Part shown: positions 22,175 to 52,637 of the stretch, one piece after another
Layout: each line of letters opens with the position of its first letter
Numbering within the stretch: position 1 is the first letter of the stretch
Source of the DNA: Candidatus Eiseniibacteriota bacterium
GTDB taxonomy: Bacteria > Eisenbacteria > RBG-16-71-46 > DASYSL01
Reading direction: 5' to 3'
DNA length: 52,637 nucleotides
NCBI GenBank assembly: GCA_031431875.1
Contig: JANPEF010000131.1
Span: 1 to 52,637 of the forward strand
Notes under the pieces: generated by a model
The model's input: only the letters and a program-made list of their open reading frames with translations
Databases searched by the model: none
Told to the model about the DNA's origin: nothing
Program-made: the position numbers and the translations under genes

Positions 22175-22334
22175 GGGAGACCTCCGGGATCGCCACGGGG
22201 AATGCGGCGCAGGAGTGGAGGAGGGGGGGAGGCGGAGCGCGACCAGTCTAGCGCATCGCGAGCCCGGGGGTGAAACCTCCTCTCGCGGCATGCGTTCAGG
22301 TGCCACGAGCCTTGATCATGCCCGGACGATGGTG

Positions 22335-29000: not shown

Positions 29001-30110
29001 GAACCCGGTCGGGGTTCCGGTCGAAAAGTCCGCACGCACCCGGTTCGTCTTGATGCGGAACACGACGCGAACGCGGCCCGCGACCGGTTGCAGGCTGCTG
29101 AACGCCTTCACCACGGCCGAGTCGGCTCCGGCGACCGGCCGCTTCCCGGAGATCGCGAAGATCTCCTGGTGCGGCTTCGTCAGGTCGAGGACCTCCGAGA
29201 ACCAGCGCCGGTTCGTGTCGTACGCGTTCTCGTTCGGTGAACCGACGTAGACCATGAACGTGTCGGCGGGGTTGTTCACGAAGTGGGCGATGTTCGTCGG
29301 ATCGGGGTTGAACCAACCGGTGCCGTTCGCCTGAGTGTCGACAAAAGTCGAGATGTCGGTGCGGAACCTGAATGCGACAGTCCCCGTCCCCGTCGAGGGG
29401 AAATCCTTGTACATCATCTGGTCCCACAGGTTGCAGAACCCCGGGAGCTCGGGTGAATTCAAGCTCGTTCCGAGTTCGATCATGAGCGCGCCGTTGAGGT
29501 AATTCCCGGTCAGGGCATCCTGTGCCGCGAGATTTCCGTGCTCACGGAGGCCGCACCAGGCGGAGCGAGCGCCCGCGATCGGAATTGCCGAGAGCTCGGC
29601 TCCATTCGCGATGTTCAACTTCACGCCCGTCATCGTGTCCGAGTGCCACGCGCCGGCGATGCCGGTGCGCACGTACTTCCGGCCGGCCAGTTCGCGCGCG
29701 GCCCACAGCGGCGTATTTCCGTGGTTGATCACGTTTCCGTAGTCGAGGGCCCATTCCGGACGGGAGAGGGCCGGGCGGTCCCCGCCGCTCCGGTAAGGGA
29801 GGACCCACGTGCGGAAGCCCTGGGAGGAGTCCGTGCCGGCTGCGCCTTCGTCGAAGTCCCACACGCCGCCCACGCCGACGCCGAGGTAGGCGCCGCCCGG
29901 GCCCGTGCTCGAGTGCCCGATCCACACCGTGTCGCACTCCGCGCCGGCGCAGTTGGAGCTGGCGGTGATATTTTCCGCGCCGCCAGGCGCGGAAGAACCG
30001 CGAAGGACCGGTCGGACGATTGGTGCTTCGACTTCTGGGGTCTCGGCCGCGTGAACGGAGGCAACGGCGACGAGCGTGAAAAATGCGCAGGCGAGCGCGA
30101 TCCGTCTCAT
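26055..30110 (-). CDS. Large secreted protein of unknown function with FlgD-Ig tail (paralog A, 1351 aa)
   Basis: Signal peptide MRRIALACAFFTLVAVASVHA after GGGAGA. Colinear with its neighbour. Alternative in-frame ATG at 30272. Confidence 0.85.
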   Translation of the reverse strand: MRRIALACAFFTLVAVASVHAAETPEVEAPIVRPVLRGSSAPGGAENITASSNCAGAECDTVWIGHSSTGPGGAYLGVGVGGVWDFDEGAAGTDSSQGFRTWVLPYRSGGDRPALSRPEWALDYGNVINHGNTPLWAARELAGRKYVRTGIAGAWHSDTMTGVKLNIANGAELSAIPIAGARSAWCGLREHGNLAAQDALTGNYLNGALMIELGTSLNSPELPGFCNLWDQMMYKDFPSTGTGTVAFRFRTDISTFVDTQANGTGWFNPDPTNIAHFVNNPADTFMVYVGSPNENAYDTNRRWFSEVLDLTKPHQEIFAISGKRPVAGADSAVVKAFSSLQPVAGRVRVVFRIKTNRVRADFSTGTPTGFNSKDGAALVDEVQVDGGTVYGFESAASLTGRSLIPDLALDSGPWATTGKPPASPFHVADVATLVYEDLCGAVGAPTRLCNLTGNVWTPQDPASGQIPMEGYWNIQSPTIDLAVRTAAPGTKNSQGIDQETASRTTGIIQFDFYSGHMDLDQSVFYLPGARAYAPAIWKQPISGTPVWSGAGYSFITFNPDPFCYSDFQSLGVLGIPAGSVDSVQMLLAVRTFGWRFGGTDLGNTRGTYFDNLRVGLVRGGAAPSLAQPIWDKYQDQFPFNENVAPGDNAAFDTTTALMTTGLNILSPPTAPGVVAGDSILVGAPFGSGDGVTMGTRVDLIFRIDPGPGSYVVKGDRASALVNRDPLHPFFATYLANNGPFGSPGGHGGTWSRHAWNSARLDSAELRLYPITSRGIGNPTGGTWMGTLHEKDPNFAALGIDRPLCFLVNPDGTNDASNISCIGTAPAIYGAVAASSQEATKILPDGWFTPGTHIEYFVRKSTLEAPGTYELLFDTTRVFPQDAGGIADYDQERWSSADVLPDMWKSSRYGGAGLACLLMIDGNDRRGADPQYRGAADTLGYGKDDGATSGWRGIGPGSDPNDPAGFVAANRGQYGLNYDHYDIRAAESFEAGHPGVRFAQNTGGIAQKGDRSGPSASMLATLYTTVLHLSGDLSGGVVHDGFDSQEGADDIALYDGFLAGATSVNRRGLWLSGDGMMEDGAINSDDGTFLYPFLTATFGADLTSPDYHAYSASAATTVGLLPTAAWSHPGRIYGLAHLCTLRPDVLEIVPTVDGASIAAAYQALGPGTEFTASVYRPIGTGREFRTLIDGFDLSHLRGHYATLAAIQTGVGSNMARLGWFDDVVAGHFQICARRLPALSVGDLPGTQAQRFSNQNLGAYPNPALAARAVTLRFTLAAPASIRVRIYNVAGREVAAFAHKGVEGENRAPWDGRLANGSSAPAGVYFYRLDGAAFDGTAPGASAKAKLILLSGN

Positions 30111-30326
30111 GGGCGATCTCCCGATGAGTTGCGTGTGGAGATGGACTCGGGGCTCAGGGCGGGCATCGACGGATGCGCGCGCGGCATGGTCGGGCGTGCG
30201 GGGCCCTGCGGCGGAAGGGAGGGCAATGCGCAGCCGACGCCTGGGGGCGCGAGGACGAAGGTGCCGTGGCATGGTGACTCCTCGGGCCGAGGCGGGGGGG
30301 AACTTCGCGCTCGGATCTGTGCATCG

Positions 30327-30486: not shown

Positions 30487-33400
30487 TCAGTTCCCCGAGA
30501 GCAGGATCATCTTCTGCGGCGCGCCGCCGCCGTCGAACTCGATGCCGTCCAGCCGGTAGAAGTAGACGCCCGGCGCGGCCTTGGCGCCGTTGGCGAGGGC
30601 GCCGTCCCAGACCACGTTGTTCGGTCCGGCCAGGCCCTTCTGCACGAGCTTCGCGACTTCGCGACCCGCCACATTGTAGATGCGCACCGTGACGTCCTGC
30701 GCCTGCGCAAGCGTGAAGCGCAGCGTGATGTTGCGCGCCGCCAGCGCCGGGTTGGGGAAGGCACCCAGGTTCAGGTTGGAGAAGCGTCCACCATCCGTGC
30801 CCGGCAGGTCGCCCGCGCTCACGACCGGTCCGCGCCGCGCGCAGATCTGGAAGTGGCCGGCGGCCGCGTCGTCGAACCACGAGATGCGACCGAGGTCCGA
30901 GCCCAGCTTCGTCGCGATGTCCGCGAGCGTCGCGTAGCTGCCGCGCAGGTTGAACAGGTCGAATCCGTCGATCAGCGTGCGGTAGTCACGCCCGGTGCCG
31001 ATCGGACGGTAGACCGATGCGGTGAACGTGGTGCCCGCGCCGAGCGCCTGGTAGCGCGCCGCTTCCGCCGCGTCGTCGACGGTCGGGACGACCGCCAGCA
31101 CGTCGGCCAGTTGCGTGCACTGGTGATTGAAGCCGTAGACGCGACCCGGGTGGGCCCACGCCGCGGTCGGCAGGAAGCCGACCGTTGTGGCACTCGACTG
31201 CGAGTACGCCTTGTAATTCGGGCTCGTCAGGTCGGAGCCGAAGAGCTCGGTGAGGAACGGATAGAGGACCGTTCCATCATCCGAGTTGATCGCGCCATCC
31301 TCCATGATGCCGTCACCCGACAGCCAGATGCCGCGCCGGTTGGCCGGCGTCGCGCCGGTGAGGAAGCCCTCGTACAGCGACACGTCATCGGCTCCTTCGC
31401 CCTGGTCGAAGGCGTCGTGGATCGCACCGGCGCCGTTGTCGCCCGAGAGGTGCAGCAGCGACGTGTAGAACGTCGCCAATTGCGCCGCCGACGGACCGGA
31501 CTTGTCGCCCTTCGCCGCGATCGCACCCAGGTTCTGGGCGAAGCGCACGCCGGGGTGACCCGACTGGTCGGACTCGGAGCCTTCGATGTCGTAGTGGTCG
31601 AAGTTCAGGCCGTACTGGCCCAGGTTCGCCGCCACGAAGCCGGTCGGATCGTTCGGGTCGGAGCCCGCACCGATGCCCTTCCAGCCCTGCGACGCGCCGT
31701 TGTTCTTGCCGTAGCCCAGCGAGTCGGTCGCACCGCGGTAGACGCGATCGGACCCGCGCCGGTCCCCGGCGTCGACCATGAGCATGCAGGCGAGGCCGCT
31801 GCCACCGTAGCGCGACGACTTCCACATGTCGGGCAGGACGTCGACGCTGGTGAAGCGTTCCGCGTCGAAGTCGGGGTTGCCGACCGGGTCCTGCACGAAG
31901 ACGTTCGTCGTGTCGAACAGCAACGAGACTTGTCCCGGGTCGTCGGTCCGCGACCAGCGCACGAAGTACTCGATGTGCGTGCCGGGCGAGAACCAGCCGT
32001 CGGGCAGGATCTTGGTGCCTTCCTTCGACGAGCCGTTGACCGCGCCGTAGGCCGGCGGCGGCGTGCCCGTGCAATCCGTGTTCGAGATGTCGTTCGCACC
32101 GTTCGGATCGACCAGGAAGCAGACGCTGTGGTTGATGCCGAGTGCTGCGAACTTCGGATCGGCCTCGTGCAGCGAGCTCATCCACTGCGGCGGAATCGGA
32201 TTGCCGATCGCGCGCGGATTGATCGGATAGATGTTGATCTCCGCCGAGTCCATGCGCGCCGAGTTCCAGACGTGCCGGTTCCACGTGCCGCCATGTCCGC
32301 CCGGCGTGCCGAACGTGCCATTGTTCGCCAGGTACTGGGCGAAGAACGGATGTCCCGCATCCTTGTTCACCAGCGCCGAGGCACGATTGCCCTTGACCGT
32401 GTAGTTGCCCGGGCCCGGATCGATGCGGAAGATCAGGTCGACCCGGACGCCGGAGGCGATGCCGTCCCCGTCGTACGGCGACAATACGACCATCGTGTCA
32501 CCCGCCACGACGCCGGGATCGGCGGTGACGGCCACGATGTTGAGTCCCGTCTTCATGTACGCCGTGGTCGTGTCGAACGAGGCGTTATCGCCGGGCGACA
32601 CGCCCTCGTTGAAGGGGAACTGGTCCTGCTGCCGGTTCCACACCGCTTGCGCCAGCACCGGCGCCGCGGCGCGGACGAAGCCGACTCGCAGGCGATCGAA
32701 GTACGTGCCGCGCGTGTTGCCCAGGTTGGTGCCACCGAAGCGCCAACCCTGGGTCAGCGTGTTGATGATGAGCCGCAGCGAGTCGATGTTGCCCGCCTGG
32801 AACCCGATCGCCGTGATGTTGTTCAGGTCCTGGTAGCAGAACGGATCGTCGTTGAAGCTGATGATCCCGGGCAGCAGCGTGTTCGACCAGATCGGGGCCC
32901 CCGAGACCGGCTGCTTGAACACCGTCGGGGAATACGCCCGTGCGCCGACGCGCCAGAATACGGATTCGTCGAGGCTCATGAACCCGGTGTAGATGTCCAT
33001 GTCTGCGACGACCGCGGTCCGCGCCGCCGTCGCCTGCTCGATGCCCTGCCCGTTCTTCGTGCCGGACGCCGCGCCGTGCACCGCCAGGTCGATCGTCGGC
33101 GACTCGATCATGTGGAAGTGCTCGGTGACGAGGATGTTCGCGTTCTCGGCATCACCGGTGACCATCACGTTGCCCGAGAGGTCGCAGATGCGCGCCGGGG
33201 TGCCGACGCCACCGCAGAGATCCTCGTAGAGCAGGTTCGCGATGTTGTCGATGTGGTAGTAGACGGCCGGCGGCTTGCCGGTCGTGGCCCACGCGCCACC
33301 GCTTGCGCCGAGGTCGGCGATGAGGGAGCGCGCCGTGACTGCACCGGCGGTCTCGAAGCCGTACGTGGCGCCGGCGCCGACCCTGACCTGGTCGACCAGC

Positions 33401-34578
33401 GCCGCGCCGTCCTTGGTGTTGAAGCCGGTCGGTGTTCCCGTCACCTGGTCCGCTCGGACGCGGTTGGTCTTGACGCGGAAGACCACGCGAAGGTTGCCGC
33501 CCACCGGCGAGAGGTCCGCCCAGTTGCGCTGGATCAGGGTGTCGGCCGAGGCGAACGGGAAGTTCCCGGACGTCGCGAAGACCTCCTGGTAGGGCAGGTT
33601 CTGGTCGAGCACTTCGGAGAACCAGCGGCGATTCGTGTCGTAGGCGGTCTCCGTCGGTGAGCCGACGTAGACCAGGAACGAGTCGGCCGGGTTGTTGACG
33701 AAGTTCGCGATGTTCGTCGGATCGGGATTGAACCAGCCCGAGCCCGCCGCGAGCGGATCGACGAACGTGGATAGCGCGGTGCGCACGCGGAACTCGAGCG
33801 CGCCCGCGGCTCCGGCCGCGAAGTCCTTGTAGAGCATCTGGTCCCAGCCGTTGCAGTAGCCCGGGTACTCGGGCTCGTTGCCGAGGCCCGCGCCACCCTG
33901 CTCGACGGCGAGGTCACCGTTGATGTAGTTGCCGGTCAGGGCGTCCTGCGCGGACGTGTTGCCGGACTCGCGCAGTCCGCACCACGCGGAGCGCGTGCCG
34001 GCGATCGGCAGAGCGCTCGGCTCGGCCCCGTTCAGCACGTTGAGTTTCACCCCGGCCATCGTGTCCGAGTGCCAGGCGCCGGCGATGCCCGTCTTCACGT
34101 ACTTGCGGCCGGCAATGTTGCGCGCGGTCCACAGGTTCGTGTTGCCCTCGTTGATCATGTTGCCCGTGTCGACCGCCCACTCCGGGCGATTGATCGCAGG
34201 ACGCGTGCCGCCGGAGCGGTACTGCATGGCGTAGCGCTTCCAGCCCTGCGTCGAGTCCGTGCCGGCCGCGCCGGTGTCGAAGTCCCACACGCCGCCGACG
34301 CCGACGCCGAGGAAGGCGCCCCCGGGTCCGGCCGAGGAGTGTCCGACCCACACGGTGTCGCAGGCGGTGCCGGCGCAGTCCGAGTTGGCGACGCCCATGC
34401 GGGCGCCCCCGGCGCGGTTGCCGCCGGGAATCGCCTTCTCGACGCCCAGCTGCGGTTCACCGGCCTCGAGGCCCGCGTGTGCGCGGGCGGGAAGAATCAT
34501 GGTCGCGAAGAGGAACAGAGCGACAGCCGGGGAGTAGTTCCAGGGTGCGCGTTTCGCCCTCGGGCGAAGCAGAAGCAT
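30487..34578 (-). CDS. Large secreted protein of unknown function with FlgD-Ig tail (paralog B, 1363 aa)
   Basis: GGAGG RBS, signal peptide ending ARAHA, colinear with paralog A. Both end in ILLSGN. Confidence 0.88.
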   Translation of the reverse strand: MLLLRPRAKRAPWNYSPAVALFLFATMILPARAHAGLEAGEPQLGVEKAIPGGNRAGGARMGVANSDCAGTACDTVWVGHSSAGPGGAFLGVGVGGVWDFDTGAAGTDSTQGWKRYAMQYRSGGTRPAINRPEWAVDTGNMINEGNTNLWTARNIAGRKYVKTGIAGAWHSDTMAGVKLNVLNGAEPSALPIAGTRSAWCGLRESGNTSAQDALTGNYINGDLAVEQGGAGLGNEPEYPGYCNGWDQMLYKDFAAGAAGALEFRVRTALSTFVDPLAAGSGWFNPDPTNIANFVNNPADSFLVYVGSPTETAYDTNRRWFSEVLDQNLPYQEVFATSGNFPFASADTLIQRNWADLSPVGGNLRVVFRVKTNRVRADQVTGTPTGFNTKDGAALVDQVRVGAGATYGFETAGAVTARSLIADLGASGGAWATTGKPPAVYYHIDNIANLLYEDLCGGVGTPARICDLSGNVMVTGDAENANILVTEHFHMIESPTIDLAVHGAASGTKNGQGIEQATAARTAVVADMDIYTGFMSLDESVFWRVGARAYSPTVFKQPVSGAPIWSNTLLPGIISFNDDPFCYQDLNNITAIGFQAGNIDSLRLIINTLTQGWRFGGTNLGNTRGTYFDRLRVGFVRAAAPVLAQAVWNRQQDQFPFNEGVSPGDNASFDTTTAYMKTGLNIVAVTADPGVVAGDTMVVLSPYDGDGIASGVRVDLIFRIDPGPGNYTVKGNRASALVNKDAGHPFFAQYLANNGTFGTPGGHGGTWNRHVWNSARMDSAEINIYPINPRAIGNPIPPQWMSSLHEADPKFAALGINHSVCFLVDPNGANDISNTDCTGTPPPAYGAVNGSSKEGTKILPDGWFSPGTHIEYFVRWSRTDDPGQVSLLFDTTNVFVQDPVGNPDFDAERFTSVDVLPDMWKSSRYGGSGLACMLMVDAGDRRGSDRVYRGATDSLGYGKNNGASQGWKGIGAGSDPNDPTGFVAANLGQYGLNFDHYDIEGSESDQSGHPGVRFAQNLGAIAAKGDKSGPSAAQLATFYTSLLHLSGDNGAGAIHDAFDQGEGADDVSLYEGFLTGATPANRRGIWLSGDGIMEDGAINSDDGTVLYPFLTELFGSDLTSPNYKAYSQSSATTVGFLPTAAWAHPGRVYGFNHQCTQLADVLAVVPTVDDAAEAARYQALGAGTTFTASVYRPIGTGRDYRTLIDGFDLFNLRGSYATLADIATKLGSDLGRISWFDDAAAGHFQICARRGPVVSAGDLPGTDGGRFSNLNLGAFPNPALAARNITLRFTLAQAQDVTVRIYNVAGREVAKLVQKGLAGPNNVVWDGALANGAKAAPGVYFYRLDGIEFDGGGAPQKMILLSGN

Positions 34579-34860
34579 GGCCGCCTCCAATTCAGGATCC
34601 GCGGCGCGAACAGGCAATGCATGGCCCTGCTCGTCCGCGAGACGAGTCCGCCGGTGCGCCGGGTCGCGCCGGAAGACCTTCGAGTTGCAACGCTGTGGAT
34701 CGGAGCCGCGCGCGCAGGAGACTGGACGCGCGCGTGGTGTGGCTCCTCACCGCAAGACACGAGGGGAAGGGGGAAGCAGAGTCGTGTCTCGTGCAAGAAT
34801 GGTAGGGGCCATGGGATGCAATGGCGGAATCATGTCTTCGTCAAGCGGAGCGTGTGACGG

Positions 34861-34963: not shown

Positions 34964-35154
34964 TGGCGCCGCGGATGCGGCCGGCGGCGGGCCGGGGGCC
35001 ATCGGTCGGTGAATTGATGAAAGCCTCTCCAGTCGCGGCCGTTCTGCATTGAGCATCCGGCGCGTCGACGCTGCGGAACGCGGTCGTGATGCACCTTGCA
35101 ACGCCCCCGAATCATCGCTTTCCGACGCCGTGCGTCGGTGCGAGGATCGACGGC

Positions 35155-35928
35155 ATGGCGTCCCGACCCCTCGCCGAAACCCTGAACGTTCACCGTGACA
35201 CCCACGTCGCCGCCATCGGTGGCGGCGGCAAGATGTCGCTGCTGTTGACGCTCGGCACCGAGTGGGCGCAGGCAGGCGGTCGGCCGCTGCTGTTGCCGAC
35301 GACGCGGATCGCCGATCACGCCGAGCGCGGCGTGCGCGGCGTGCGCACCGTCGTCCTGCCGGTCGCGCGCTCGGCCTGGCCGCCCCTGGCGTTCCTCGGC
35401 GGCGAGCTGCTCGTCGTCGGTCGCCGCGGCGATCGCCCGGGGCTGCTCGAGTCGATCCAGGTGGACGAGATCAGGCCGCTGGTCGAGCAGTCGAAGGCCG
35501 ACCTGGTGCTGATCAAGGCCGACGGCGCGCGCGGCCGCTCGCTCAAGGCGCACCAGGACGGCGAGCCCGTCGTGCCGCTCGACGCCGGGCTGGTCGTCGC
35601 CGTCGCGGGGCTCGATGCCTGGGGCATGCCGCTCGACGACGAACACGTGCACCGCGCCGAGCTCTTCGCCGAGCGCACAGCGGCCGCGCCCGGATCGCGC
35701 CTCGAGGACGATGCGTTCTACGCCGCCCTAGCCGACCCGACGGGCTACCGCGCGGCGGTTCCGCCGGCGGCACGCTACCTCGTATTCCTCAACCAGGCCG
35801 ATCGTCCGGTGCGCGTCGCCATCGCCCAGCGCCTGGCCCAGGGACTGCACGCGCGCGGCGTCGGCGAGGTGGTGTGGGGCGACCTGCGGCGCGGCGAGTG
35901 GACGCTGTCGCGCCGCGCGGCGCGCTGA
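35155..35928 (+). CDS. yqeC: YqeC-family selenium-dependent Mo-cofactor accessory protein
   Basis: GGGGK, TTRI, ADG..RSLKA..EPVVP, VAGLDA.G.PL..VHR.ELF and FLNQAD appear in the order typical of YqeC. Confidence 0.85.
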   Translation: MASRPLAETLNVHRDTHVAAIGGGGKMSLLLTLGTEWAQAGGRPLLLPTTRIADHAERGVRGVRTVVLPVARSAWPPLAFLGGELLVVGRRGDRPGLLESIQVDEIRPLVEQSKADLVLIKADGARGRSLKAHQDGEPVVPLDAGLVVAVAGLDAWGMPLDDEHVHRAELFAERTAAAPGSRLEDDAFYAALADPTGYRAAVPPAARYLVFLNQADRPVRVAIAQRLAQGLHARGVGEVVWGDLRRGEWTLSRRAAR

Positions 35929-35933
35929 CGGCG

Positions 35934-36632
35934 ATGTCGACACCGCCGGATCGCACCGGGGTCGCTGGAATCCTGCTCGCCGGCGGTGCCGGATCGCGCT
36001 ATGGCGCGGGGCGATCGAAGGCGTGGCTCACGACGGAGTCGGGCGTGCCGCTGTTCCGGGTTGCGCTCGCGTCGCTCATCCGCGTCGCCGAGACGGTCGT
36101 GGTTGCGTCTCCGGAAGGAGTCGCGCTGCCGGACGCGACGCCCTCCCTCTCCGAGTTCGTGGGCGAGGAACCCGGGCCGTACCGCACGCTTCGCGTGCTG
36201 GACCTCGCCGCGGGGGCTGGACCCCTGGCCGGGCTCGTGCCGGCGCTCGAGACGGTGGCGGCCGCGGGTGCGGTGCGCGCCTTCATCCTCGCCGTCGACA
36301 TGCCGCGCTTCACCGCGGCGGAGTTCGCGCTCCTGGCCGCTCCGCTCGACCGCGCTCCCCTGGCCGTCGCGGTCGTGCCGCGCACCCCGCACGGGCTCGA
36401 GCCGCTGTTCGCCTGCGTCCGGCCCGCGCCGGTGGCGATCGCGTTCCGGGCCGCGTGGGAGGCCGGGGAACGGGCGGTCCATGCGGCGTTCACGACGCTC
36501 GGTCCCGCGGGGCTGGTCGAGCTCGACACCACCGATCCGGTGGCCTGGCCGGGTGGACCGGCGCGCCTGCGCAGCATCAACCTGCCCGCCGACCTCCGCG
36601 CCGTCCTTGAAGAGGACGAGCCCCGGACGTAA
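35934..36632 (+). CDS. mobA: MobA-like molybdenum cofactor nucleotidyltransferase
   Basis: GILLAGGAGSRYG..SKA, GPLAGL, LAVDMP, LEPLFA, SINLPADL. The GPLAG and EPL motifs favour MobA over MocA. Confidence 0.8.
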   Translation: MSTPPDRTGVAGILLAGGAGSRYGAGRSKAWLTTESGVPLFRVALASLIRVAETVVVASPEGVALPDATPSLSEFVGEEPGPYRTLRVLDLAAGAGPLAGLVPALETVAAAGAVRAFILAVDMPRFTAAEFALLAAPLDRAPLAVAVVPRTPHGLEPLFACVRPAPVAIAFRAAWEAGERAVHAAFTTLGPAGLVELDTTDPVAWPGGPARLRSINLPADLRAVLEEDEPRT

Positions 36633-36645
36633 TCTCGCCGGCATC

Positions 36646-38811
36646 ATGACCCCGCCTTCCGGTACCGCCACTCCGCCGCTCGACGCCCCGGCCGCCCGCC
36701 CCGCAAGCGGCTTGCCGCTGCGCACCGAGAAGGGCGTCTGCCCGCACGACTGTCCCGACGCCTGCGCGCTGCTGGTCGAGGTGGAGGGCGAGAAGGTCGT
36801 GCGCGTGCACGGCGATCCGACGCACCCGGTCACCCGCGGCTTCCTGTGCAACAAGGTCAATCGCTACCCCGAGCGGCTCAACTCGACGGAGCGGCTGCTC
36901 TACCCGCAGATCCGCGTCGGGAAGAAAGGCGAGGGCGTGTTCCGCCGCGCCACGTGGGACGAGGCGCTCGACCTGGTCGCCACGCGGCTCGGCGCGATCC
37001 ATGCGCAGCACGGTGGCGAGTCGATCCTCCCGTACCACTACGCGGGAACGATGGGCCTGATCCAGAACGGCTCGCTCGATCGCCGGTTCTTCCACGCGCT
37101 CGGCGCGTCGCGGCTCGACGAGACGATCTGCTCCATGGCGGGAATGATCGGCTTCTGGTCGTGCTACGGCTCGAGCCAGGGGCCGCCGCCCGAGGCCCTG
37201 CCGCTGGCGCGGCTGGTCGTCCTGTGGGGCGCGAACGTGCTCGCCACGTCGATCCACGACTGGCCGTTCATCGAGGAGGCGCGCGCTGCCGGCGCGCCGC
37301 TCGTGGTCATCGATCCCTTGCTCACGCCGACGGCCGAGCGCGCCGACTGGCACATCCGCATCCGCCCGGGCAGCGATCCCGCGTTCGCCCTCGCGGTCGC
37401 GCACGAGATCTTCTCGGCCGGTCTGCACGACGAGGCGTGGCTCGACGCGCACGCGCAGGACTGGCGCCTCTACCGCGAGCGCGCGGCGACGTGCCCGCCC
37501 GAGCGGGCCGAAGCGTTGTGCGGCGTCTCCGCGGCCGATATCCGGCGCTTCGCCGCGATGTACGCCGATGCCGCGTCGCGCCCCGCGTACGTGCGACTCA
37601 ATTACGGCCTCAATCGCCACGCCAACGGCGCGACGCAGGTGCGCGCCGTGGCGCTGTTGCCCGCGCTCGTCGGCGACTGGGCGCGGCCCGGCGGCGGCGC
37701 CCGGCTGTCGACCAGCGGCGGCTTCGGCTTCAACAAGACGGCCCTGGCCCGCCCCGACCTCGAGCCGGGACCGGACACGCCGCGCACGATCAACATGACG
37801 GAGCTGGGCCATGCGCTGGCGGCGACGGACGCGCCGGTGAAGGCGATCTTCGTCTACTCGGCGAACCCGGCCGCGTCCAACCCCGACCAGGCGAGCGTGA
37901 TCAAGGGCCTCGAGCGCGAGGATCTGTTCACGGTCGTGCACGAGCAGTTGCCGACCGACACTGCGCGCTACGCCGACGTGCTGCTGCCCTCGACGATGGC
38001 GATGGAGCAGCCCGACCTCCACTTCGCCTACGGGCACTACCACGTGCAGCTCAATCGCCCGGCGGTCAAGGCTCCGGGTGAGTGCCGGCCGCTGCTCGAG
38101 GTGTTCCGCGCGCTGGCCAGGAGGATGGGGCTCAACGAGCCGGGGACGAAGAGCGCCGGGATGTTCGACGCGACGTTCGAGGAGCTGGTGCGCGCGGCGC
38201 TCGACAATCCTGCCAATCCACGGTTGCAGGGCATCACGCTCGAGCGACTCGATGCCGAGCGCTCGATCCCGCTCGCGCCGCAGGACGGGCGGCTGCCGTA
38301 CTATTCGCCGTTCCTCGACGGGCGCTTCGACACGCCGTCGGGGAAGGTCGAGTTCTCGTCGGAGCGGATGCGTGCCGCGGGCATCGATCCGGTGCTGGGC
38401 GCGCTCACCTCCGAGGAGGCCGACCCGGCGGTGGCCGCCGAGCACGCCCGCTTTCCGCTGCACTTCCTGTCGCCGGCATCGCGCTACTTCATCAACTCGT
38501 CGATGGTCGAGAACGAGCGCGGGCGCCGGATGCAGAAGGGCCCGCTGCTCTACTTGAGCGCGCCGGACGCCGCCGCACGCGGGATCGTCGACGGTGACCA
38601 GGTGCGGGTGACGAACGACCGGGGCGGCTGGACCGCGATCGCCGCGATCGGCGAGCTGACCGGCCCGGGCGTGGTGGCGACCTACCGCGGCTGGTGGTCG
38701 CGCTTCACCATCGACGGCACCAACGCGAATCGCACCACTTCGCAGCGACTGACCGACGCCGGCGGCGGCGCGACGTTCTACTCGACGTTCGTCGAGGTGG
38801 CGAAGGCCTGA
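36646..38811 (+). CDS. Molybdopterin oxidoreductase (DMSO reductase/MopB superfamily), cytoplasmic, Cys-ligated
   Basis: CPHDCPDAC..GFLCNK [4Fe-4S] motif, TICS ligand, WGAN, IRPGSD, ADVLLP, and a C-terminal dinucleotide-binding domain. No Tat signal. Confidence 0.92.
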   Translation: MTPPSGTATPPLDAPAARPASGLPLRTEKGVCPHDCPDACALLVEVEGEKVVRVHGDPTHPVTRGFLCNKVNRYPERLNSTERLLYPQIRVGKKGEGVFRRATWDEALDLVATRLGAIHAQHGGESILPYHYAGTMGLIQNGSLDRRFFHALGASRLDETICSMAGMIGFWSCYGSSQGPPPEALPLARLVVLWGANVLATSIHDWPFIEEARAAGAPLVVIDPLLTPTAERADWHIRIRPGSDPAFALAVAHEIFSAGLHDEAWLDAHAQDWRLYRERAATCPPERAEALCGVSAADIRRFAAMYADAASRPAYVRLNYGLNRHANGATQVRAVALLPALVGDWARPGGGARLSTSGGFGFNKTALARPDLEPGPDTPRTINMTELGHALAATDAPVKAIFVYSANPAASNPDQASVIKGLEREDLFTVVHEQLPTDTARYADVLLPSTMAMEQPDLHFAYGHYHVQLNRPAVKAPGECRPLLEVFRALARRMGLNEPGTKSAGMFDATFEELVRAALDNPANPRLQGITLERLDAERSIPLAPQDGRLPYYSPFLDGRFDTPSGKVEFSSERMRAAGIDPVLGALTSEEADPAVAAEHARFPLHFLSPASRYFINSSMVENERGRRMQKGPLLYLSAPDAAARGIVDGDQVRVTNDRGGWTAIAAIGELTGPGVVATYRGWWSRFTIDGTNANRTTSQRLTDAGGGATFYSTFVEVAKA

Positions 38812-46022: not shown

Positions 46023-46490
46023 GTGTTCGCACCCAGCCGCAGCTTCGTAGTCCCTGCCCTGCCATCGCTGCTCGCCCTGATGCTGGTCGCCGCCGTAACG
46101 TCGGCTGCGTTCGCCGCCGCGGGTCGCCTCGAACTCCCCGGGACCGACGCTGCACTGACCGCTCCGGCGGGGCCCGCGATCACCCCGCACCCGCCGTTCG
46201 TGTTCGCGCCCCTCGGTGGACCGCGGATCCTCGACCCCACGAACCCGATGCGCGAGATCTCGCCCGGCGTCTACGAGGGCATCATCCCGGTGCAATTGGC
46301 CGACGGCATGTGGCGCATCGACCTCGATGAGCGCTTTCTGCTGTTCTCGGTGGCGCGGCGGGCCGGGAGCGGGCGATTCACGCACTCGTGTGTGAGCGGC
46401 CTCGACGGGCTCGTGCGCTGGCAGGGAGCCGTGCAGCCGAAGGTGACCACGCCGGGCGGCACGGTGCGCACGCAGTGGGAGGCGCAATGA
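46023..46490 (+). CDS. Small secreted hypothetical protein coupled to the downstream peptidase
   Basis: AGGAGG 8 nt before GTG 46023, signal peptide, and a stop overlapping the next ATG. Alternative ATG at 45981. Confidence 0.7.
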   Translation: MFAPSRSFVVPALPSLLALMLVAAVTSAAFAAAGRLELPGTDAALTAPAGPAITPHPPFVFAPLGGPRILDPTNPMREISPGVYEGIIPVQLADGMWRIDLDERFLLFSVARRAGSGRFTHSCVSGLDGLVRWQGAVQPKVTTPGGTVRTQWEAQ

Positions 46491-48193
46491 GCGCCGGCCG
46501 CATTGCGACCGCCGCGATTCTCGCGGGGCTGCTGGCCCTCGCCCCGATGGCCGACGCCGCGACCATCACCATCGTCAACCTCGACAGCGCCGGCGAGGGC
46601 TTCAACGACGCGACGGTGGTCGCGCCGGTGGGCGGCAATCCGGGCACGACGCGCGGCGCGCAGCGGCTGTTCGTCTTCCAGACCGCGGCCTCGATCTGGG
46701 GCTCGCTCCTGCCGAGCGCGGTCGAGATCCGCGTCAACGCGAACTTCAACCCCCTGAGCTGCGATGCGACGAGCGCCGTCTTGGGTGGTGCCAACTCGGC
46801 GACGAACGTGGCGAACTTCGCGGGCGCCGAGCAGACCAACACGTGGTACCCGATCGCGCTCGCCAATCGCATGGCCGGGGTGGACCTGGCCGGCGCGGCG
46901 AACGACATCAACGCGCAGTTCAACTCCACGCTCGACGGGGGCACCTGCCTCGGCGGGACGACCTGGTACTACGGCATCGACGGCAACGAGGGGACCAATG
47001 TCGAGCTGCTGCCGGTCGTGCTCCATGAGCTGGGCCATGGGCTGGGCTTCGCGGGCACGACCTCGCTGACGACGGGCGCGCTCCTGAGCAGCCGGGCGAA
47101 CATCTACGAGCGCAACCTGTTCGATCGCACGCTCGGCCTGCAGTGGCCCGCGATGACGAACGCGCAGCGGCTCACCTCGGCGGTCAACTCGGGCAACCTG
47201 GTATGGACCGGTTCGGCGGTGCGCACGATTGCGCCGACGATCCTGGGCCAGCGAACGGACCTGAGCATCGATTCGCCGCCCGCAATCGCCGGGATCAAGA
47301 TCTTCGGCAACGCCGCTTTCGGACCGCGGCCGGACGCGCAGGCCATCAGCGGCGAGGTCGTCCTCGTCGACGACGAGGTCGCACCCGTGAGCGACGGTTG
47401 CGAAGGCATCGGCAACGGTCCGCTGGTGGCCGGGAACATCGCGCTGATCGACCGCGGATTCTGCCCGTTCATCGACAAGGCGGCGAACGCACAGGCGGTG
47501 GGAGCGATCGCGGTGATCATCATCAACAACGTCGCGGGCGCGCCGCCGGCCATGGGCGGAAGTCTCCCCGGCCTCACCATCCCGGTCGTCAGCATCACGC
47601 AGGCCGACGGCAACGCGATCAAGGCGCAGCTCCTGACCGGTCCGGTCACGGCGACGCTGGGGCCGAACGCCGGGTTCATTGCCGGCTGTGACGACGAGGG
47701 CCGGCCGCGCATGTACGCGCCGAACCCGGTCGAGCAGGGCTCCTCGGTGTCGCACTGGGACACCTCGGCCGAGCCCAGCCTGCTCATGGAGCCGTTCATC
47801 ACGAACGGCCTGAGCAGCGACGTCGACCTGACGCAGTTCGCGTTCGAGGACATCGGCTGGTTCAACCCGCGCCTGACCGATGCGCCGGGCGACGGCCTGG
47901 CCACGCGGCTGGCGCTGCTCGCCGCGCGCCCGAACCCGTTCGCCGCGATGACCAGCCTCGCGTTCGACCTGCCGCGGGCGGGCCGCGCCACACTCGTCGT
48001 GTTCGACGTGGCGGGGCGACGGGTCAAGAGCCTGCTCGACGGCGAGATGCCGGCCGGCCGGCATGCGGTGAGCTGGGATGCGACCGATGACGCGGGTGCG
48101 AAGGTGTCGCCCGGCGTGTACTTCTACCGCCTCACCACGGCCGAAGGCGCGGGGACGAAGAGCGCGGTGTTCGTCGCGGGGGACGGGCGTTAG
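46487..48193 (+). CDS. Secreted zinc metallopeptidase with PA domain and FlgD-Ig tail
   Basis: Signal peptide, HELGHGLGF, PA domain (IALIDRGFCPFIDKA..GAIAVIIINN), SHWD..LLMEP, PNPF..GVYF tail. Confidence 0.88.
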   Translation: MSAGRIATAAILAGLLALAPMADAATITIVNLDSAGEGFNDATVVAPVGGNPGTTRGAQRLFVFQTAASIWGSLLPSAVEIRVNANFNPLSCDATSAVLGGANSATNVANFAGAEQTNTWYPIALANRMAGVDLAGAANDINAQFNSTLDGGTCLGGTTWYYGIDGNEGTNVELLPVVLHELGHGLGFAGTTSLTTGALLSSRANIYERNLFDRTLGLQWPAMTNAQRLTSAVNSGNLVWTGSAVRTIAPTILGQRTDLSIDSPPAIAGIKIFGNAAFGPRPDAQAISGEVVLVDDEVAPVSDGCEGIGNGPLVAGNIALIDRGFCPFIDKAANAQAVGAIAVIIINNVAGAPPAMGGSLPGLTIPVVSITQADGNAIKAQLLTGPVTATLGPNAGFIAGCDDEGRPRMYAPNPVEQGSSVSHWDTSAEPSLLMEPFITNGLSSDVDLTQFAFEDIGWFNPRLTDAPGDGLATRLALLAARPNPFAAMTSLAFDLPRAGRATLVVFDVAGRRVKSLLDGEMPAGRHAVSWDATDDAGAKVSPGVYFYRLTTAEGAGTKSAVFVAGDGR

Positions 48194-49543
48194 TCAGATT
48201 GTCGCTGGGGTGTCCTCGAGCACGATGCGTTTCTGCGTGCGGCCCATCTGGGTCCGCACGCGGAACCACATCCACGCCGCGATGACGGCCAGCCCCAGCA
48301 CGAAGCCCCACCACAGCCCCGCCGGGCCCAGCTTCAATGTGAAGCCCAGGAACAGCGAGAGCGGCAGGCCCAGCGCCCAGAAGCCGACCAGGTTGGCGAG
48401 CAGCGGGGCGCGCGTGTCGCCGATGCCGCGCAGGATGCCGATGCCCGTCACCTGCATGCCGTCGAACACCTGAAACAGCGCCGCCAGGCGCAACAGCGTT
48501 GCCGCGGTGGCCTGGACTTCCGCGTCCGGTGTGTAGATGCGCGCGATCGGCTCGGCGAAGACGAACAGGATCGTTGCCGACACCAGCTCGAACCCGATCG
48601 CGCAGAGGTACGACAGCCGCGCTGCCTTGCGCATCGCCGCCGGGTCGTGCGCGCCGACGGCGCGGCCGACCAGCACCGCCGCGGCCATCGAGATCCCCAG
48701 CGGGACCATGAACGTGAAGCTGGCCACGACGAGCGCGATCTGGTGCCCGGCCAGCGGGATCGTGCCCAGCCGACCCATCATGACGCCGATCAGCCCGAAG
48801 ACGCCGAACTCGAGCACGAACTGGGCGCCGATCGGAGCTCCCAGCCGGACGAAGCGCCACAGCGGTCCCGTCGCGAACGCCGCGCGGGAGAACGGCGTGA
48901 GCATCGGCCGGAACGTGCCCCAGGCGAGCCCGAGGAGCAGCGCGGTCATCACGAAGCGCCCGATCGTCGTGGCGACGGCGGAGCCGACGACGCCCATGGC
49001 GGGCGCGCCCAGGTTGCCGTAGATGAACATCCAATTGAGGAGCGCGTTGAGCAGGTTGGCGATGATGATCGTGATCACGATCGGCGTCAGGCGATGCATG
49101 GCCTGCAGCGTCTGGCGCAGCACGATGAAGTAATAGAACGGCACCAGCCCGATCATCGCGGTGCGCACGTAGGCCCACGCCAGCGGGATGACCTCGGCCG
49201 GCTGGCCCGTCCAGCGCAGGATCGGCTCGGCCAGGCACTGGATCAGCATGGTTGGCACGGAAATGACGGTCGCCAGCACGATCGCGCGCTGGAACGAGCG
49301 GGCCACGGCCGGGTGATCGTCGGCGCCGATCGCCTGGGCGACCACCGCGTCGAGCGACATGATCACGCCCATGCCGAACGTGGCGACGACCATGAAGATG
49401 GTGCTGGCCAGGGCGACCGCGGCGATGGCGGCGGGGGAGACCCGGCCGACCATGATCGTGTCGACCATGCCCATCGCCATGAGCCCGACCTGGACCAGGA
49501 TGACGGGTGCGGCGATGGACAGCAGCTTCCTGAGGTCGTTCAC
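48194..49543 (-). CDS. MATE family efflux transporter (NorM-like)
   Basis: VDTIMVG, LNWMFIYGNLGAPAMG, LFQVFDGMQ..LRGIGDTR. GTGA overlap with fhs. Confidence 0.93.
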   Translation of the reverse strand: MNDLRKLLSIAAPVILVQVGLMAMGMVDTIMVGRVSPAAIAAVALASTIFMVVATFGMGVIMSLDAVVAQAIGADDHPAVARSFQRAIVLATVISVPTMLIQCLAEPILRWTGQPAEVIPLAWAYVRTAMIGLVPFYYFIVLRQTLQAMHRLTPIVITIIIANLLNALLNWMFIYGNLGAPAMGVVGSAVATTIGRFVMTALLLGLAWGTFRPMLTPFSRAAFATGPLWRFVRLGAPIGAQFVLEFGVFGLIGVMMGRLGTIPLAGHQIALVVASFTFMVPLGISMAAAVLVGRAVGAHDPAAMRKAARLSYLCAIGFELVSATILFVFAEPIARIYTPDAEVQATAATLLRLAALFQVFDGMQVTGIGILRGIGDTRAPLLANLVGFWALGLPLSLFLGFTLKLGPAGLWWGFVLGLAVIAAWMWFRVRTQMGRTQKRIVLEDTPATI

Positions 49544-51174
49544 CCGCCTTCGCCGAGAACGATGCGGCCCGAGCCGTCGAGGTCGAAGCGCTCCGCCAAC
49601 GGCCGCTTCGGCAGGCCGGGCATGCGCAGGATCTCGCCGGTGATCGGGATGACGAAGCCGGCGCCGGCGGCGAGCTGGATCTCGCGCACGGTGACGAGGA
49701 AGTCCTTGGGCCGGCCCAGCAGCTTGGGGTTGTCCGACAGCGACTGCTGCGTCTTGGCGATGCACACCGGCAGCCCGCCGTAGCCCAGCTTCTCGAGGTG
49801 GGCGCGATCGCGCTTCGCGCGCGCCGTGTAGTCGACCGCCTCGGCGCCGTACATCTCGTGGGCGATCGTCTTGATCTTCTCCTCGATCGACGAGTTCCAG
49901 TCGTAGAGCGGGCGGAAGTGCGGAGCGCTCGCGGTGGCCAGCGCGTGCACGCGCTCGGCCAGCGCCGTGCAGCCTGCGCCGCCTGTGCCGAACGGGTCGG
50001 CGACGACCGCCTCGATCCCGAGCGACGCGCAGTGGGCGACGACGGCGGCCAGTTCCTCGTTCGTGTCCGTGGGGAAGCGGTTGATCGCCACCACGCACGG
50101 CTGCTCGAAGCGCCGGATGTTCTCGAGATGCTTCTCGAGGTTGGGCATCCCGGCGGCGAGGGCGGCGGCATTCGGCGCGCTGACGGTGTCGAGCGGCGCG
50201 CCGCCGTGCATCTTGAGCGCGCGCAACGTGGCCACGAGCACGGTGCAGGCGGGCGCGAAGCCGCCGTAGCCGCAGTTGATGTCGAAGAACTTCTCGGCTC
50301 CCAGCTCGAAGGCGAAGCCGGCCTCGGTGACGACGATGTCGGCGTAGGCCAGTGCCAGGCGCGTTGCGGCGATCGAGTTGGTGCCGTGCGCGATGTTGGC
50401 GAACGGGCCGCCATGGATGATCGCGGGCACGCCCTCGCGGGTCTGCACCAGGTTCGGCATCACCGCGTCGTGCAGCAGCGCGGCCATGGCGCCGACCGCG
50501 CGCATGTCGCCGGCGGTGACGGCCGTGCCGTCGGGGCGGTAGCCGACGACGATGCGGGCCAGCCGCGCCCTCAGGTCGTCGATGCCGTCGGCCAGGCAGA
50601 GGATGGCCATGACCTCGCTGGCCGCCGAGATGTCGAAACCCGACTCGCGCGGCACGCCCTCGAGGTGGCCGCCCAGCCCCAGTACGATGTGGCGCAGGGC
50701 ACGATCATTCATGTCGAGCACGCGGCGCCACGTGACGCGCCGCGGATCGAGCCCGGAGTCGTTGCCGTGGTGCAGGTGGTTGTCGACCATCGCGGCGAGC
50801 AGGTTGTGCGCGCTCGAGACCGCGTGGATGTCGCCGGTGAAGTGCATGTTCACGTCGTCGGCCGGCTCCACCTGCGAGGCGCCGCCGCCGGTGCCGCCGC
50901 CCTTCATGCCCAGGTACGGCCCGAGCGACGGCTCGCGCAGTGCGACTGCCGCGCGCACGCCGTTCTTCGCCAGTCCCTGCGCCAGGCCGATCGAGGTCGT
51001 GGTCTTGCCCTCGCCCGCCGGCGTGGGCGTGATCGCCGAGACGAGGACGAGGCGTCCCTTCGGCGTGCGGCCGGCGAGCGCGGCGAGCGAGATCTTGGCC
51101 TTGGTGTGGCCGTAAGGGATGACGTGTTCCGGGGCGAGCCCGAGCGTGCGGGCGACATCCATGATGGGTTTCAT
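49540..51174 (-). CDS. fhs: Formate--tetrahydrofolate ligase
   Basis: TPTPAGEGKTT, LREPSLGP..GMKGG, HGGPFANIAHG, TEAGF, CIAKTQ.SLSD, MPGLP. Confidence 0.97.
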   Translation of the reverse strand: MKPIMDVARTLGLAPEHVIPYGHTKAKISLAALAGRTPKGRLVLVSAITPTPAGEGKTTTSIGLAQGLAKNGVRAAVALREPSLGPYLGMKGGGTGGGASQVEPADDVNMHFTGDIHAVSSAHNLLAAMVDNHLHHGNDSGLDPRRVTWRRVLDMNDRALRHIVLGLGGHLEGVPRESGFDISAASEVMAILCLADGIDDLRARLARIVVGYRPDGTAVTAGDMRAVGAMAALLHDAVMPNLVQTREGVPAIIHGGPFANIAHGTNSIAATRLALAYADIVVTEAGFAFELGAEKFFDINCGYGGFAPACTVLVATLRALKMHGGAPLDTVSAPNAAALAAGMPNLEKHLENIRRFEQPCVVAINRFPTDTNEELAAVVAHCASLGIEAVVADPFGTGGAGCTALAERVHALATASAPHFRPLYDWNSSIEEKIKTIAHEMYGAEAVDYTARAKRDRAHLEKLGYGGLPVCIAKTQQSLSDNPKLLGRPKDFLVTVREIQLAAGAGFVIPITGEILRMPGLPKRPLAERFDLDGSGRIVLGEGG

Positions 51175-51251
51175 GGGGGGAAGTTGACGGCCGCGCCCGC
51201 CAACGGCAAGCACCTTTTGCCCGGGGCGGGGCGGTCTGCTAGCCTTGGCGC
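51175..51251. promoter_or_regulatory. Back-to-back promoters, probably producing leaderless mRNAs
   Basis: Plus strand: TTGCCC-17-TAGCCT-6-ATG, with an extended -10 TG. Minus strand: TTGCCG-17-CAACTT-6-ATG. Neither gene has an SD sequence. Confidence 0.55.
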
Positions 51252-52637
51252 ATGCGTTCCCTCCGCCACGCCCCCGTGCTGCTCGCCGTCCTGCTGGTTG
51301 CCGTGCCCGTGGGCGCGAGTTGCGCCGCGGCGGCCGCCGCTCCCTCGGCGACGCCGAAGCAGGCCGCCCACTCGGTGCTGCCGTTCATCGACGACGACCT
51401 CCCGCGGGCGCTCGCCGAGGCGAAACGGCGCGACCTGCCGCTGTTCGTCGAGTCGTGGGCACCCTGGTGACACTCGTGTCGCTCGATGAGGGCGTTCGTC
51501 TTCACGAACCCCGCCCTCGCGAGTGAAGCCGGACGGTTCGTCTGGCTCGCCCTCGACGTCGAGAAGAAGCAGAATGCCGCCGCGAAGAAGACGTACTACG
51601 CCTCGGCCCTGCCCACCTTCATGATCGTCCACCCGTCCGACGGATCGGTGCTGAGCCGGCGCGTCGGCGGCATGTCCGTCGACCAGCTCCGCGAGTTCCT
51701 GCGCTCCGGGGAGACCGCGCTCGTCGCCGCACGTGGCGGAAAGGCGGCAGCACCCGCGGACACCGCGCTGGCCCGGGCCGAGCGCGCCTACGGCGCCGGG
51801 GACTACGAGACGGCGGCCGGCGCGTATGTCGTCGCGCTGAGGAATCCGCCGGCCGACCCGGCAGCCGACTCGCGCGCCGTCGAGGCGGCGTTGTACTCGC
51901 TGTCGATGGCCGACCGCGGCGCCGACGGTCTCGCCGTCGCCGAGGCGGCGCGCGGGCGCTTCGGGCATTCCGCGGCCGGCGCGAGCGCGACCGCGCAGGC
52001 GCTCGACTTCGCGCTGGCGCTGCCGGATTCGACGCCGGGGCGCGGGGCGAAAGTCGCCGAGCTCGAGGCGGCGACGCGCGCCTTCGTGGCCGACACGACC
52101 CTGGGGCTCGCCGATGACGATCGCTCGGGCATGCTCGGCACGTTGCTCTCGGCACGCCAGGATGCGAAGGACGAACCCGGCGCGAAGGTCGCGGCTGACG
52201 CGTGGGTCACGTTCCTGCTGGGCGCGCGGGCGCGCAACACGACCGCCGAACAACGGACCGCTTCGGATGGATACCTGGTGGGCGCCGCGATCGAGGCGGG
52301 CGAGCCGGAGCGAGCGCTGCCGGCGCTCCTGGCGTCGGAGCGGGACCTGCCCGACGACTACAACCCGCCGGCCCGCGTCGCCGCGCTGTACAACGCGCTC
52401 AAGCGCTACGACGACGCGGAGGCGGCGGCGAAGCGGTCGCTGGCCAAGGCGTACGGTCCGCGCAAGCTCCGCGTCTATTCGACGCTGGCCGATGCGCAGA
52501 TCGGGGCGGGGGACACCGCCGCCGCGCGGGCGACCCTTGACGCGGGGATCGCTTACGGAGCATCTCTGCCCGAAGGGCAGAGGCCGAATGCTCTCATGGC
52601 GTCGCTCGCCAAGAAGCGGGATGGGTTGCTGGCGAAG
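51252..52637 (+). CDS. Exported thioredoxin-fold plus TPR protein, probable selenoprotein (UxxC); runs off the window end
   Basis: Signal peptide, then LFVESWAPW-TGA(51468-51470)-HSCRSM. The frame stays open to the window end, with the cis-Pro motif ALPTF and TPR-like helices. Confidence 0.85.
51471..51525 (+). promoter_or_regulatory. Candidate SECIS-like hairpin 3' of the in-frame UGA
   Basis: GTTCGT-CTTC-ACGAAC stacked on GAGGGC/GCCCTC, with outer pair CACTCG/CGAGTG. Confidence 0.55.

Follow-up and report, generated by a model that had tools for sequence, protein, structure and literature searches.

The contig JANPEF010000131.1 (C131) of a Candidatus Eiseniibacteriota bacterium (assembly GCA_031431875.1; 3.75 Mb, 70% GC, 98.45% complete), the whole of which (52,637 nucleotides, nt) is the window analysed here, ends in a forward-strand gene (51252-52637) that is interrupted at codon 73 by an in-frame TGA and that, if this codon is read as selenocysteine (Sec, U), encodes a thioredoxin (Trx) domain followed by a solenoid of tetratricopeptide repeat (TPR)-like helices. 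With TGA taken as U, the 462 codons on the contig contain zero further stops, 389 of them lying open between U73 and the window end, and the contig stops one codon short of the last residue of a protein of 463 amino acids (aa), as both a database protein identical to the post-TGA part and the closest congener end with one extra Ser. The TGA (51468-51470, + strand) specifies the first residue of a U-H-S-C redox motif (51468-51479) in the context LFVESWAPW-U-HSCRSM, and FVWLALDVE, ALPTF and RRVGG are all found in the translated frame past it. The first-pass annotation of the window had proposed that the frame runs on from here to the window end, completing the Trx fold and adding TPR helices, and translation, Pfam and an AlphaFold2 model bear this out.

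The first ~30 residues (51252-51341, + strand) form a probable signal peptide for the secretory (Sec) pathway, with a basic start, a hydrophobic core and an Ala-rich end, the cleavage site being judged by eye from the sequence rather than by a signal-peptide predictor. The same signal-peptide-like N-terminal anatomy is shared by the homologs, which upholds the export signal annotated initially, and aa 1-26 have a low predicted local distance difference test (pLDDT) score in the AlphaFold2 model. The lipobox (G-A-S-C) suggested along with it was rejected, since Cys24 is present in this sequence and absent from its two closest congeners (L021 and L022); G-A-S-C also lacks the Leu, Val or Ile that a usual lipobox has at position -3. 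Because Cys24 is not conserved, this member is probably soluble in the envelope; homologs from Myxococcaceae carry a lipobox-like L-(V/L/I)-A-C and look like lipoproteins. The Trx-fold domain (51378-51716, + strand; aa 43-155) is DsbD-gamma/Thioredoxin_7-like, and the Pfam match to Thioredoxin_7 (PF13899; aa 48-128, E 3e-10) spans the Sec codon and lies above its cut-off, as does a match to PF00085. Its L-P-T loop (aa 120-122) contains a Pro121 that is invariant in a 41-sequence alignment and probably has cis geometry. The TPR-like helical solenoid (51753-52637, + strand; aa 168-462) gives only a weak, below-cut-off Pfam match to TPR_12 (aa 375-429) and is marked by near-invariant DDxS, PxDYNPxxRL and GxR motifs, the DDxS, DYNP and GxR residues being conserved in 159-160 of 160 sequences. 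The AlphaFold2 model built from the 41-sequence alignment (pLDDT 91.5, predicted template modelling score 0.87) has a disordered N-terminus, a Trx fold at about aa 43-155 and ~14 helices after it. The closest named relative (L050, Candidatus Eisenbacteria) is 80% identical.

Six nt ahead of the ATG lies an extended -10-like element (TG-n-TAnnnT; 51237-51245, + strand), a probable leaderless promoter. Of 168 homologous genes, 122 (among the TGA genes, 61 of 75) have a TAnnnT hexamer 5-7 nt ahead of the in-frame start, versus 4 when the spacing is set to 12-14 nt as a control, and this conservation speaks for Met1 as the initiation codon of a leaderless mRNA; transcription of the selenoprotein gene would then be leaderless. 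The signature (51237-51254 and homologous loci) is kept in Sec and Cys forms alike. A promoter scan of the region returned no sigma-70 pair, its sole terminator-like site falling within a stem-loop described below as hairpin 1, and an Rfam search over 50800-52637 gave nothing relevant, with a single miRNA match at E 0.69.

Codon 73 is almost certainly decoded as Sec by the ordinary bacterial SelA, SelB, SelD and tRNA-Sec, the evidence for Sec insertion, as for expression and export, being computational throughout. The genes for all four, including a tRNA-Sec with anticodon UCA, were found in the genome above curated cut-offs, as a selenoprotein assignment by the first-pass annotation called for. 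The selB gene is full length and has TGA as its own stop, a codon that also terminates other ordinary genes of this genome, and selA is present in 185 of 206 genomes of the phylum (116 of the 121 of good quality). The thioredoxin-TPR gene itself occurs in 106 of these 206 genomes, from which we fetched 110 regions holding 116 of ~124 matches, removing duplicates and dropping a spurious second match (L083). At the codon in question 77 distinct own-phylum genes have TGA and 25 have Cys, which confirms that the TGA occupies the position of the leading Cys in a thioredoxin W-C-H-x-C motif; five more genes form a paralog group with W-U-Y-S-C. Adding to the 25 a further 71 Cys genes (mainly from Acidobacteriota and Myxococcota), the latter including two duplicates of own-phylum genomes, gave 96 non-TGA genes, and every one of these has Cys at this codon, never Trp. 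The contig pattern scan that contributed Cys genes used peptide patterns that favour Cys (78 Cys and 2 TGA among 80) and gives no TGA frequency.

Outside the phylum, 125 of 298 published genomes in the class Thermoanaerobaculia (Acidobacteriota) carry the gene, and a TGA is contained in 110 of 128 matches (counts made by hand, three unpublished genomes being excluded); the 29 loci of this class that were checked by position comprise 19 with TGA and 10 with Cys. In Myxococcota, 15 of 20 loci picked by eye from 150 listed matches of an over-loose, mostly noise pattern scan are TGA homologs and 5 are not. Homologs with TGA or Cys at this codon are thus present in three phyla and mostly have a normal downstream length (67 of 73 complete TGA frames), so that the TGA is not unique to this assembly. 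A 160-protein tree cannot be reconciled with fewer than 13 Sec/Cys changes, and Cys genes are often nested next to TGA genes. The prediction that gene callers mis-split such genes also held: 39 of the top 120 protein hits lack the WCHxC motif, and 36 of these begin at a Met six codons past the TGA, the footprint of callers splitting the gene. Over 51000-51680 the sequence agrees without a difference with a contig that the same study obtained from another sample (contigs, not raw reads, were compared), and a contig from a second study that spans the codon has 15 differences, none at the TGA among the 10 listed. A search of 72,556 plasmid records returned a single partial Trx match. In an Acidobacteriota-class genome (G255:C30:1831-4392, L255-type) two adjacent TGA-bearing copies stand in tandem.

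Several points weigh against this picture. Support at the deep nodes of the tree is weak, and we claim no direction of Sec/Cys change; the sequences are related, so gene counts overstate independence; 6 of the 73 complete TGA frames, and likewise some Cys genes, are aberrant in length downstream; and the only RNA contig of the gene ends 3 bases past the TGA, in a library in which DNA is possible.

As to what the protein does, we lean slightly towards a DsbD-fed envelope disulfide reductase with a client-binding TPR domain. The best NCBIfam match for all 41 aligned members is a DsbD model, far under its cut-off, and the top matches of the Trx domain, by sequence and by structure, include DsbD-gamma and DsbH-like domains. 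The likeness to DsbD gamma extends to the sequence of 2fwe (E 2e-12), to the structure of 1vrs (Z 13.9, root-mean-square deviation 2.2 over 111 residues) and to the L-P-T cis-Pro loop, whereas the protein as a whole, unlike DsbD, is stand-alone and exported, is devoid of the DsbD membrane domains and scores 36 bits against a cut-off of 330. The 98% complete genome encodes DsbD, whose presence alongside a DsbB that was not found fits this reading. The solenoid matches the structures of peptide-binding TPRs, namely LGN/Pins (Z 17, root-mean-square deviation ~5) and Sti1/Hop, and its near-invariant residues suggest a fixed binding surface. After export, the Sec of U-H-S-C would attack disulfides or oxidised cysteines of envelope proteins and Cys76 would resolve the intermediate, while the TPR solenoid would hold the client and DsbD would return the electrons. 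It counts against such a role that no conserved partner gene marking a client or electron donor was found, the neighbours following lineage. In many Cys members from Acidobacteriota and Myxococcota (L053-L128), and at some phylum loci, the solenoid carries a second pair of Cys, possibly a structural disulfide, that this protein lacks; 56 of 68 have exactly two additional Cys.

A possible alternative, to which we give tentative credence, is that the selenoprotein, rather than being a DsbD-fed reductase, works in the envelope as a disulfide oxidase or isomerase, or shields client thiols as a holdase like CnoX. A His directly follows the attacking residue in 157 of 157 genes tallied, and DsbA/PDI oxidases have a His in the CxxC dipeptide, there in the second position. 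Moreover, DsbB was not found in the 98% complete genome, which leaves the oxidation route unassigned. Against this stand the closest matches of the Trx domain, which are DsbD-gamma, DsbH-like and thioredoxin reductant-type domains, and the position of the Sec, as Sec in place of the attacking Cys suits a nucleophilic reductant. The order of a Trx domain followed by a TPR domain is the same as in CnoX/YbbN (accessible text of PMC8129009), although the global structural match is poor, with a template modelling (TM) score of 0.20 to 3qou and 3qdn. CnoX, a partner of cytoplasmic GroEL/DnaK, has a TPR part made of two subdomains with five helices each, whereas this protein has an export signal, ~14 helices and Sec, and TPR_20 (PF14561) does not match the gene; membership in CnoX/YbbN was rejected on the export signal, the size, the TM score and the missing TPR_20 match. 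Among the structure matches listed, no solved chain spans both a Trx and a TPR domain, which is no proof of a new arrangement.

We now turn from the protein to the RNA behind the UGA. According to the available part of PMC13188914, the consensus for the bacterial Sec insertion sequence (SECIS) calls for a G at loop position 1 or 2 and for a spacing of 16-37 nt between the UGA and the apical loop. When +1 to +93 (U of UGA being +1) is folded, two adjacent hairpins form. The single hairpin that the first-pass annotation had placed after the UGA is real (hairpin 1; 51479-51526, + strand, +12 to +59) and stable (z -5.6, 0 of 200 shuffles being equally stable), but its predicted loop holds no G, and the SelB-type loop resides in a second hairpin (hairpin 2; 51528-51546, + strand, +61 to +79). 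Hairpin 2 has 8-9 bp, a stability of -14.1 kcal/mol and an apical GGUUC (51535-51539), and so has the loop and stem of a canonical SECIS; its spacing from the UGA is 64 nt (61 nt in paralogs), outside the canonical 16-37 nt. We consider hairpin 2 very probably to be the SelB-binding SECIS, brought close by hairpin 1.

All 7 stem pairs of hairpin 2 are intact in 77/77 own-phylum TGA genes and in 108/108 TGA genes from metagenomes, a set chosen solely by the 24 nt around the TGA (120 stretches, 108 of them distinct and long enough, 5 too short and 7 duplicates). The hairpin is part of the minimum-free-energy (MFE) fold in 185/185 TGA genes versus 5/96 Cys genes, and it is found at +61 in all 19 Thermoanaerobaculia-class and all 15 Myxococcota TGA loci. 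When the peptide is held constant (AG[RQ][FY][VA]WL), the hairpin-2 motif is present in 75/75 TGA genes versus 4/23 Cys genes, and thus the protein sequence alone does not account for it. At the loop-closing pair 68-72, U72 occurs in 34 of 66 genes with A68 and in 0 of 116 with G68, while TTT is used at 25 of 400 other Phe codons; judged from these codon counts, the pattern is a compensatory synonymous change. In a 16-sequence subset two hairpin-2 pairs show two-sided changes. The GGUUC loop also resembles the loops that lie 18 nt after the UGA in two other genes of the same genome, encoding formate dehydrogenase (FDH) alpha (C135, GGUCU) and a UxxC redoxin (C153, GGUCC), and just 20 such hairpins with at least 7 pairs exist genome-wide. 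The W-U-Y-S-C paralogs (L201, L202, L203, L205 and L209) are 34-44% identical, lack the DDRS motif where aligned and are a second copy in four genomes; they are shorter by a codon ahead of hairpin 2 and have another sequence in hairpin 1, and they have the same hairpin 2 (5/5) directly behind a long stem. A scan of the genome for additional distant SECIS elements recovered only this gene and the redoxin, and was insensitive, its filters also missing FDH and an UshA-like gene.

Hairpin 1 is, by its signatures in codon usage and folding energy, selected in TGA genes. Closure between +10-26 and +44-60 with at least 6 expected pairs is found in 76/77 and 107/108 TGA genes versus 17/96 Cys genes, in a test in which the first nine bases were blocked on the assumption that they are covered by the ribosome, and the mean synonymous-shuffle z is -2.41 against -0.39 and -0.28. 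At codon +7, Arg is encoded by the rare AGG in 47 of 67 cases versus ~3% downstream, and this AGG pairs with the opposite Leu codon. Without blocking, the 5' end falls at +9 to +15 in 184/185 TGA genes and the 3' end at +55 to +60, the latter lying at +58 to +60, where it adjoins hairpin 2, in 165/185. Hairpin 1 thereby removes ~50 nt and leaves a median of 14 nt between the UGA and the hairpin-2 loop, which would be close to the 18 nt of the normal SECIS elements of this genome once the width of the helix is allowed for. It is probably a spacer rather than a SECIS.

Other observations argue against this two-hairpin arrangement. Hairpin 2 overlaps the conserved strand AGRFVW, so that its conservation is partly protein-driven, and synonymous shuffling gives it a z of just -1.16; the short-window MFE places a loop with a G at canonical distance in 32/185 TGA genes (24/96 Cys genes); and the hairpin-2 motif persists in four Cys genes. 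RNAalifold gave no consensus for hairpin 1, which lacks a fixed register and shows no two-sided change in the 16-sequence test, and a looser closure test is passed by 56/96 Cys genes as well. Relatedness among the sequences also inflates the hairpin counts. The Cys genes that retain the hairpin-2 motif (L036, L070, L072 and L074), one of which (L036) adjoins a TGA gene on the tree, are possibly recent Sec-to-Cys reversions.

Taken as a whole, an exported Sec protein with a distant two-hairpin SECIS and a DsbD-fed reductase function is, in our estimation, a likely explanation of the locus. The ribosome would start at 51252 on a probably leaderless mRNA and, almost without doubt, read UGA73 as Sec. 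Hairpin 1 would begin about at the mRNA entry of a ribosome paused on the UGA and end where hairpin 2 begins, so that ~50 nt would be looped out and GGUUC would sit about where the loop of a normal SECIS does. In E. coli, domain 4 of SelB binds the SECIS, whose lower part is unwound at the ribosome (PMC7026636, in its available part). Hairpin 1 may bring hairpin 2 to the position where domain 4 of SelB binds the SECIS at the ribosome.

It is unlikely that hairpin 2 serves as a SECIS acting at a distance alone, with hairpin 1 selected for other reasons, such as pausing at the UGA or hiding the AUG of Met79. This AUG does lie within hairpin 1, which tolerates register shifts, and a stable stem of whatever sequence could delay the ribosome when placed at the mRNA entry; such roles do not sit well with the adjoining ends of the two hairpins in 165/185 genes, with a leftover median of 14 nt near the 18 nt of two normal SECIS elements, or with the same hairpin 1/2 junction being retained in the shorter paralogs. 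Slightly less probable again is that Sec is inserted with hairpin 1 as the SelB-binding SECIS, having an atypical loop, and with hairpin 2 as an accessory or a by-product of the protein sequence. Hairpin 1 is at the canonical distance (its loop ~29 nt after the UGA), is stable and is selected in TGA genes, opening two of its pairs would give a loop starting with GU, and some bacterial SECIS elements depart from the model (PMC13188914, in its accessible part). Its apex, however, varies freely, paralogs included, and a G-loop at canonical distance is no commoner in TGA than in Cys genes, whereas hairpin 2 is invariant, carries a compensatory change and has a loop matching the other SECIS loops of the genome. 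That the TGA is a true stop (of a nonsense pseudogene, an assembly error, or a short peptide followed by a separate TPR gene from Met79) or encodes Trp is highly improbable, for although the downstream part is entered in databases as a separate protein, a few TGA genes are frameshifted downstream and the sequence evidence comes from contigs, the TGA lies inside a Trx fold, recurs at this position in >200 genes from three phyla whose frames stay open over their full length beyond it, is replaced by Cys and never Trp in the non-TGA genes, ends ordinary genes here, is unchanged in the contig from another sample and has a promoter-like element ahead of Met1.

The proposed two-hairpin SECIS resembles the canonical element of the E. 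coli fdhF type in being an in-frame hairpin with a stable stem and a small loop of G then G/U that would be served by an ordinary SelB, and differs from it in its 64 nt spacing and in the second, selected hairpin that occupies the gap. In work by Su, Li and Gladyshev in 2005, a far SECIS reportedly supported Sec insertion in E. coli when base pairing brought it close, in an artificial 3'-UTR construct said to be of low efficiency; unlike that engineered SECIS, the arrangement here is natural, lies inside the open reading frame and is conserved across three phyla. A share of bacterial selenoprotein genes lacks a canonical SECIS, according to the accessible text of PMC13326102 and PMC12013277, in which TPR is not mentioned. 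The literature searched, with subscription journals mostly outside its scope, yielded no account of the family or of a natural distal bacterial SECIS, and the available parts of PMC8129009, PMC10778597, PMC3322552, PMC1242214 and PMC10945757 contain nothing on this family.

The thioredoxin-TPR selenoprotein family is uncatalogued as far as could be searched, and may be filed under a generic Trx heading. It is not named among the 119 catalogued selenoprotein families in the accessible part of PMC13188914, in which there is no TPR fusion and the word TPR is absent; the comparison was made by family names, not representative accessions, with the families of Haft and Tolstoy 2025 taken as tabulated there. 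In the selenoprotein models of NCBIfam release 20.0 the query falls far under every cut-off, and the 41 members give weak domain-level matches (best E 3e-12). In these catalogues, at least, the gene is as absent from the well-described families as the first-pass annotation had supposed. Its relatives by type are the bacterial UxxC Trx-fold selenoproteins (Trx, PF00085; thiol:disulfide interchange, PF13098; thiol-disulfide isomerase-like, cd02966; available part of PMC13188914), with which it shares the Trx fold, a Sec that substitutes for the attacking Cys of CxxC, Cys homologs elsewhere and, presumably, SelB-dependent UGA decoding, and from which its 295-aa TPR solenoid and export signal set it apart. 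Like the selenoprotein Trx7/PDZ (NF041199), it joins a Thioredoxin_7-type domain to a protein-binding domain; in NF041199, unlike here, the motif is CxxU and the partner is PDZ, and this protein scores 13 bits against a cut-off of 300.

The surroundings of the gene are not conserved. The formate-tetrahydrofolate ligase gene fhs (49540-51213, - strand) is divergent from the selenoprotein gene and adjacent in only 3 of 174 loci, all of them close congeners, the pairing being shared with the two closest congeners alone, and a conserved operon was rejected, as the neighbours follow lineage. Five large proteins whose C-terminal FlgD Ig-like domain is likely to be a tail for secretion or sorting are encoded at 9091-11892, 18863-22306, 26055-30272, 30487-34617 (- strand) and 46388-48193 (+ strand), two of them being tandem 1,400-aa proteins with no other informative Pfam match. 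A role of the selenoprotein for Cys-rich secreted proteins of the window, as had been suggested, was abandoned, the FlgD-Ig-tailed proteins holding 2-13 Cys in 601-1405 aa (~1% or less) in a neighbourhood that is not conserved. At 35086-38811 (+ strand) genes for YqeC (PF19842), a MobA-like NTP transferase and a molybdopterin oxidoreductase lie in a row; YqeC together with SelD, which in this genome has Cys, we take to mark the selenium-cofactor trait, and the genome may presumably use selenium in a second way. Other in-frame TGA candidates, as a lower bound, are the UxxC redoxin (G000:C153:70967, - strand), FDH alpha (C135:1583, + strand; UHAP) and an UshA-like protein (C82:61173, + strand; CGU); in all three a hairpin with a G-loop lies 18-25 nt beyond the UGA.

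We hold it to be fairly likely that the locus represents a natural long-range two-hairpin bacterial SECIS, kept across three phyla, in an exported Sec chaperedoxin that would be the envelope counterpart of CnoX. A candidate SECIS at 64 nt, set against the accepted rule of 16-37 nt, touches on the matter of bacterial SECIS elements that are atypical and, if true, may partly explain the 12.6% of catalogued bacterial selenoprotein genes that lack a canonical SECIS (accessible text of PMC13326102), and searches that begin from the SECIS would miss whole families. Looping out ~50 nt of coding sequence would free the residues behind the redox motif from RNA constraint, which is of relevance to making selenoproteins recombinantly, a setting in which the residues beside the Sec normally have to be changed to accommodate the SECIS. 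The repeated Sec/Cys switches with loss of both hairpins constitute a natural series for the decay of a recoding signal, in a widespread selenoprotein family represented in public databases only by truncated TPR proteins.

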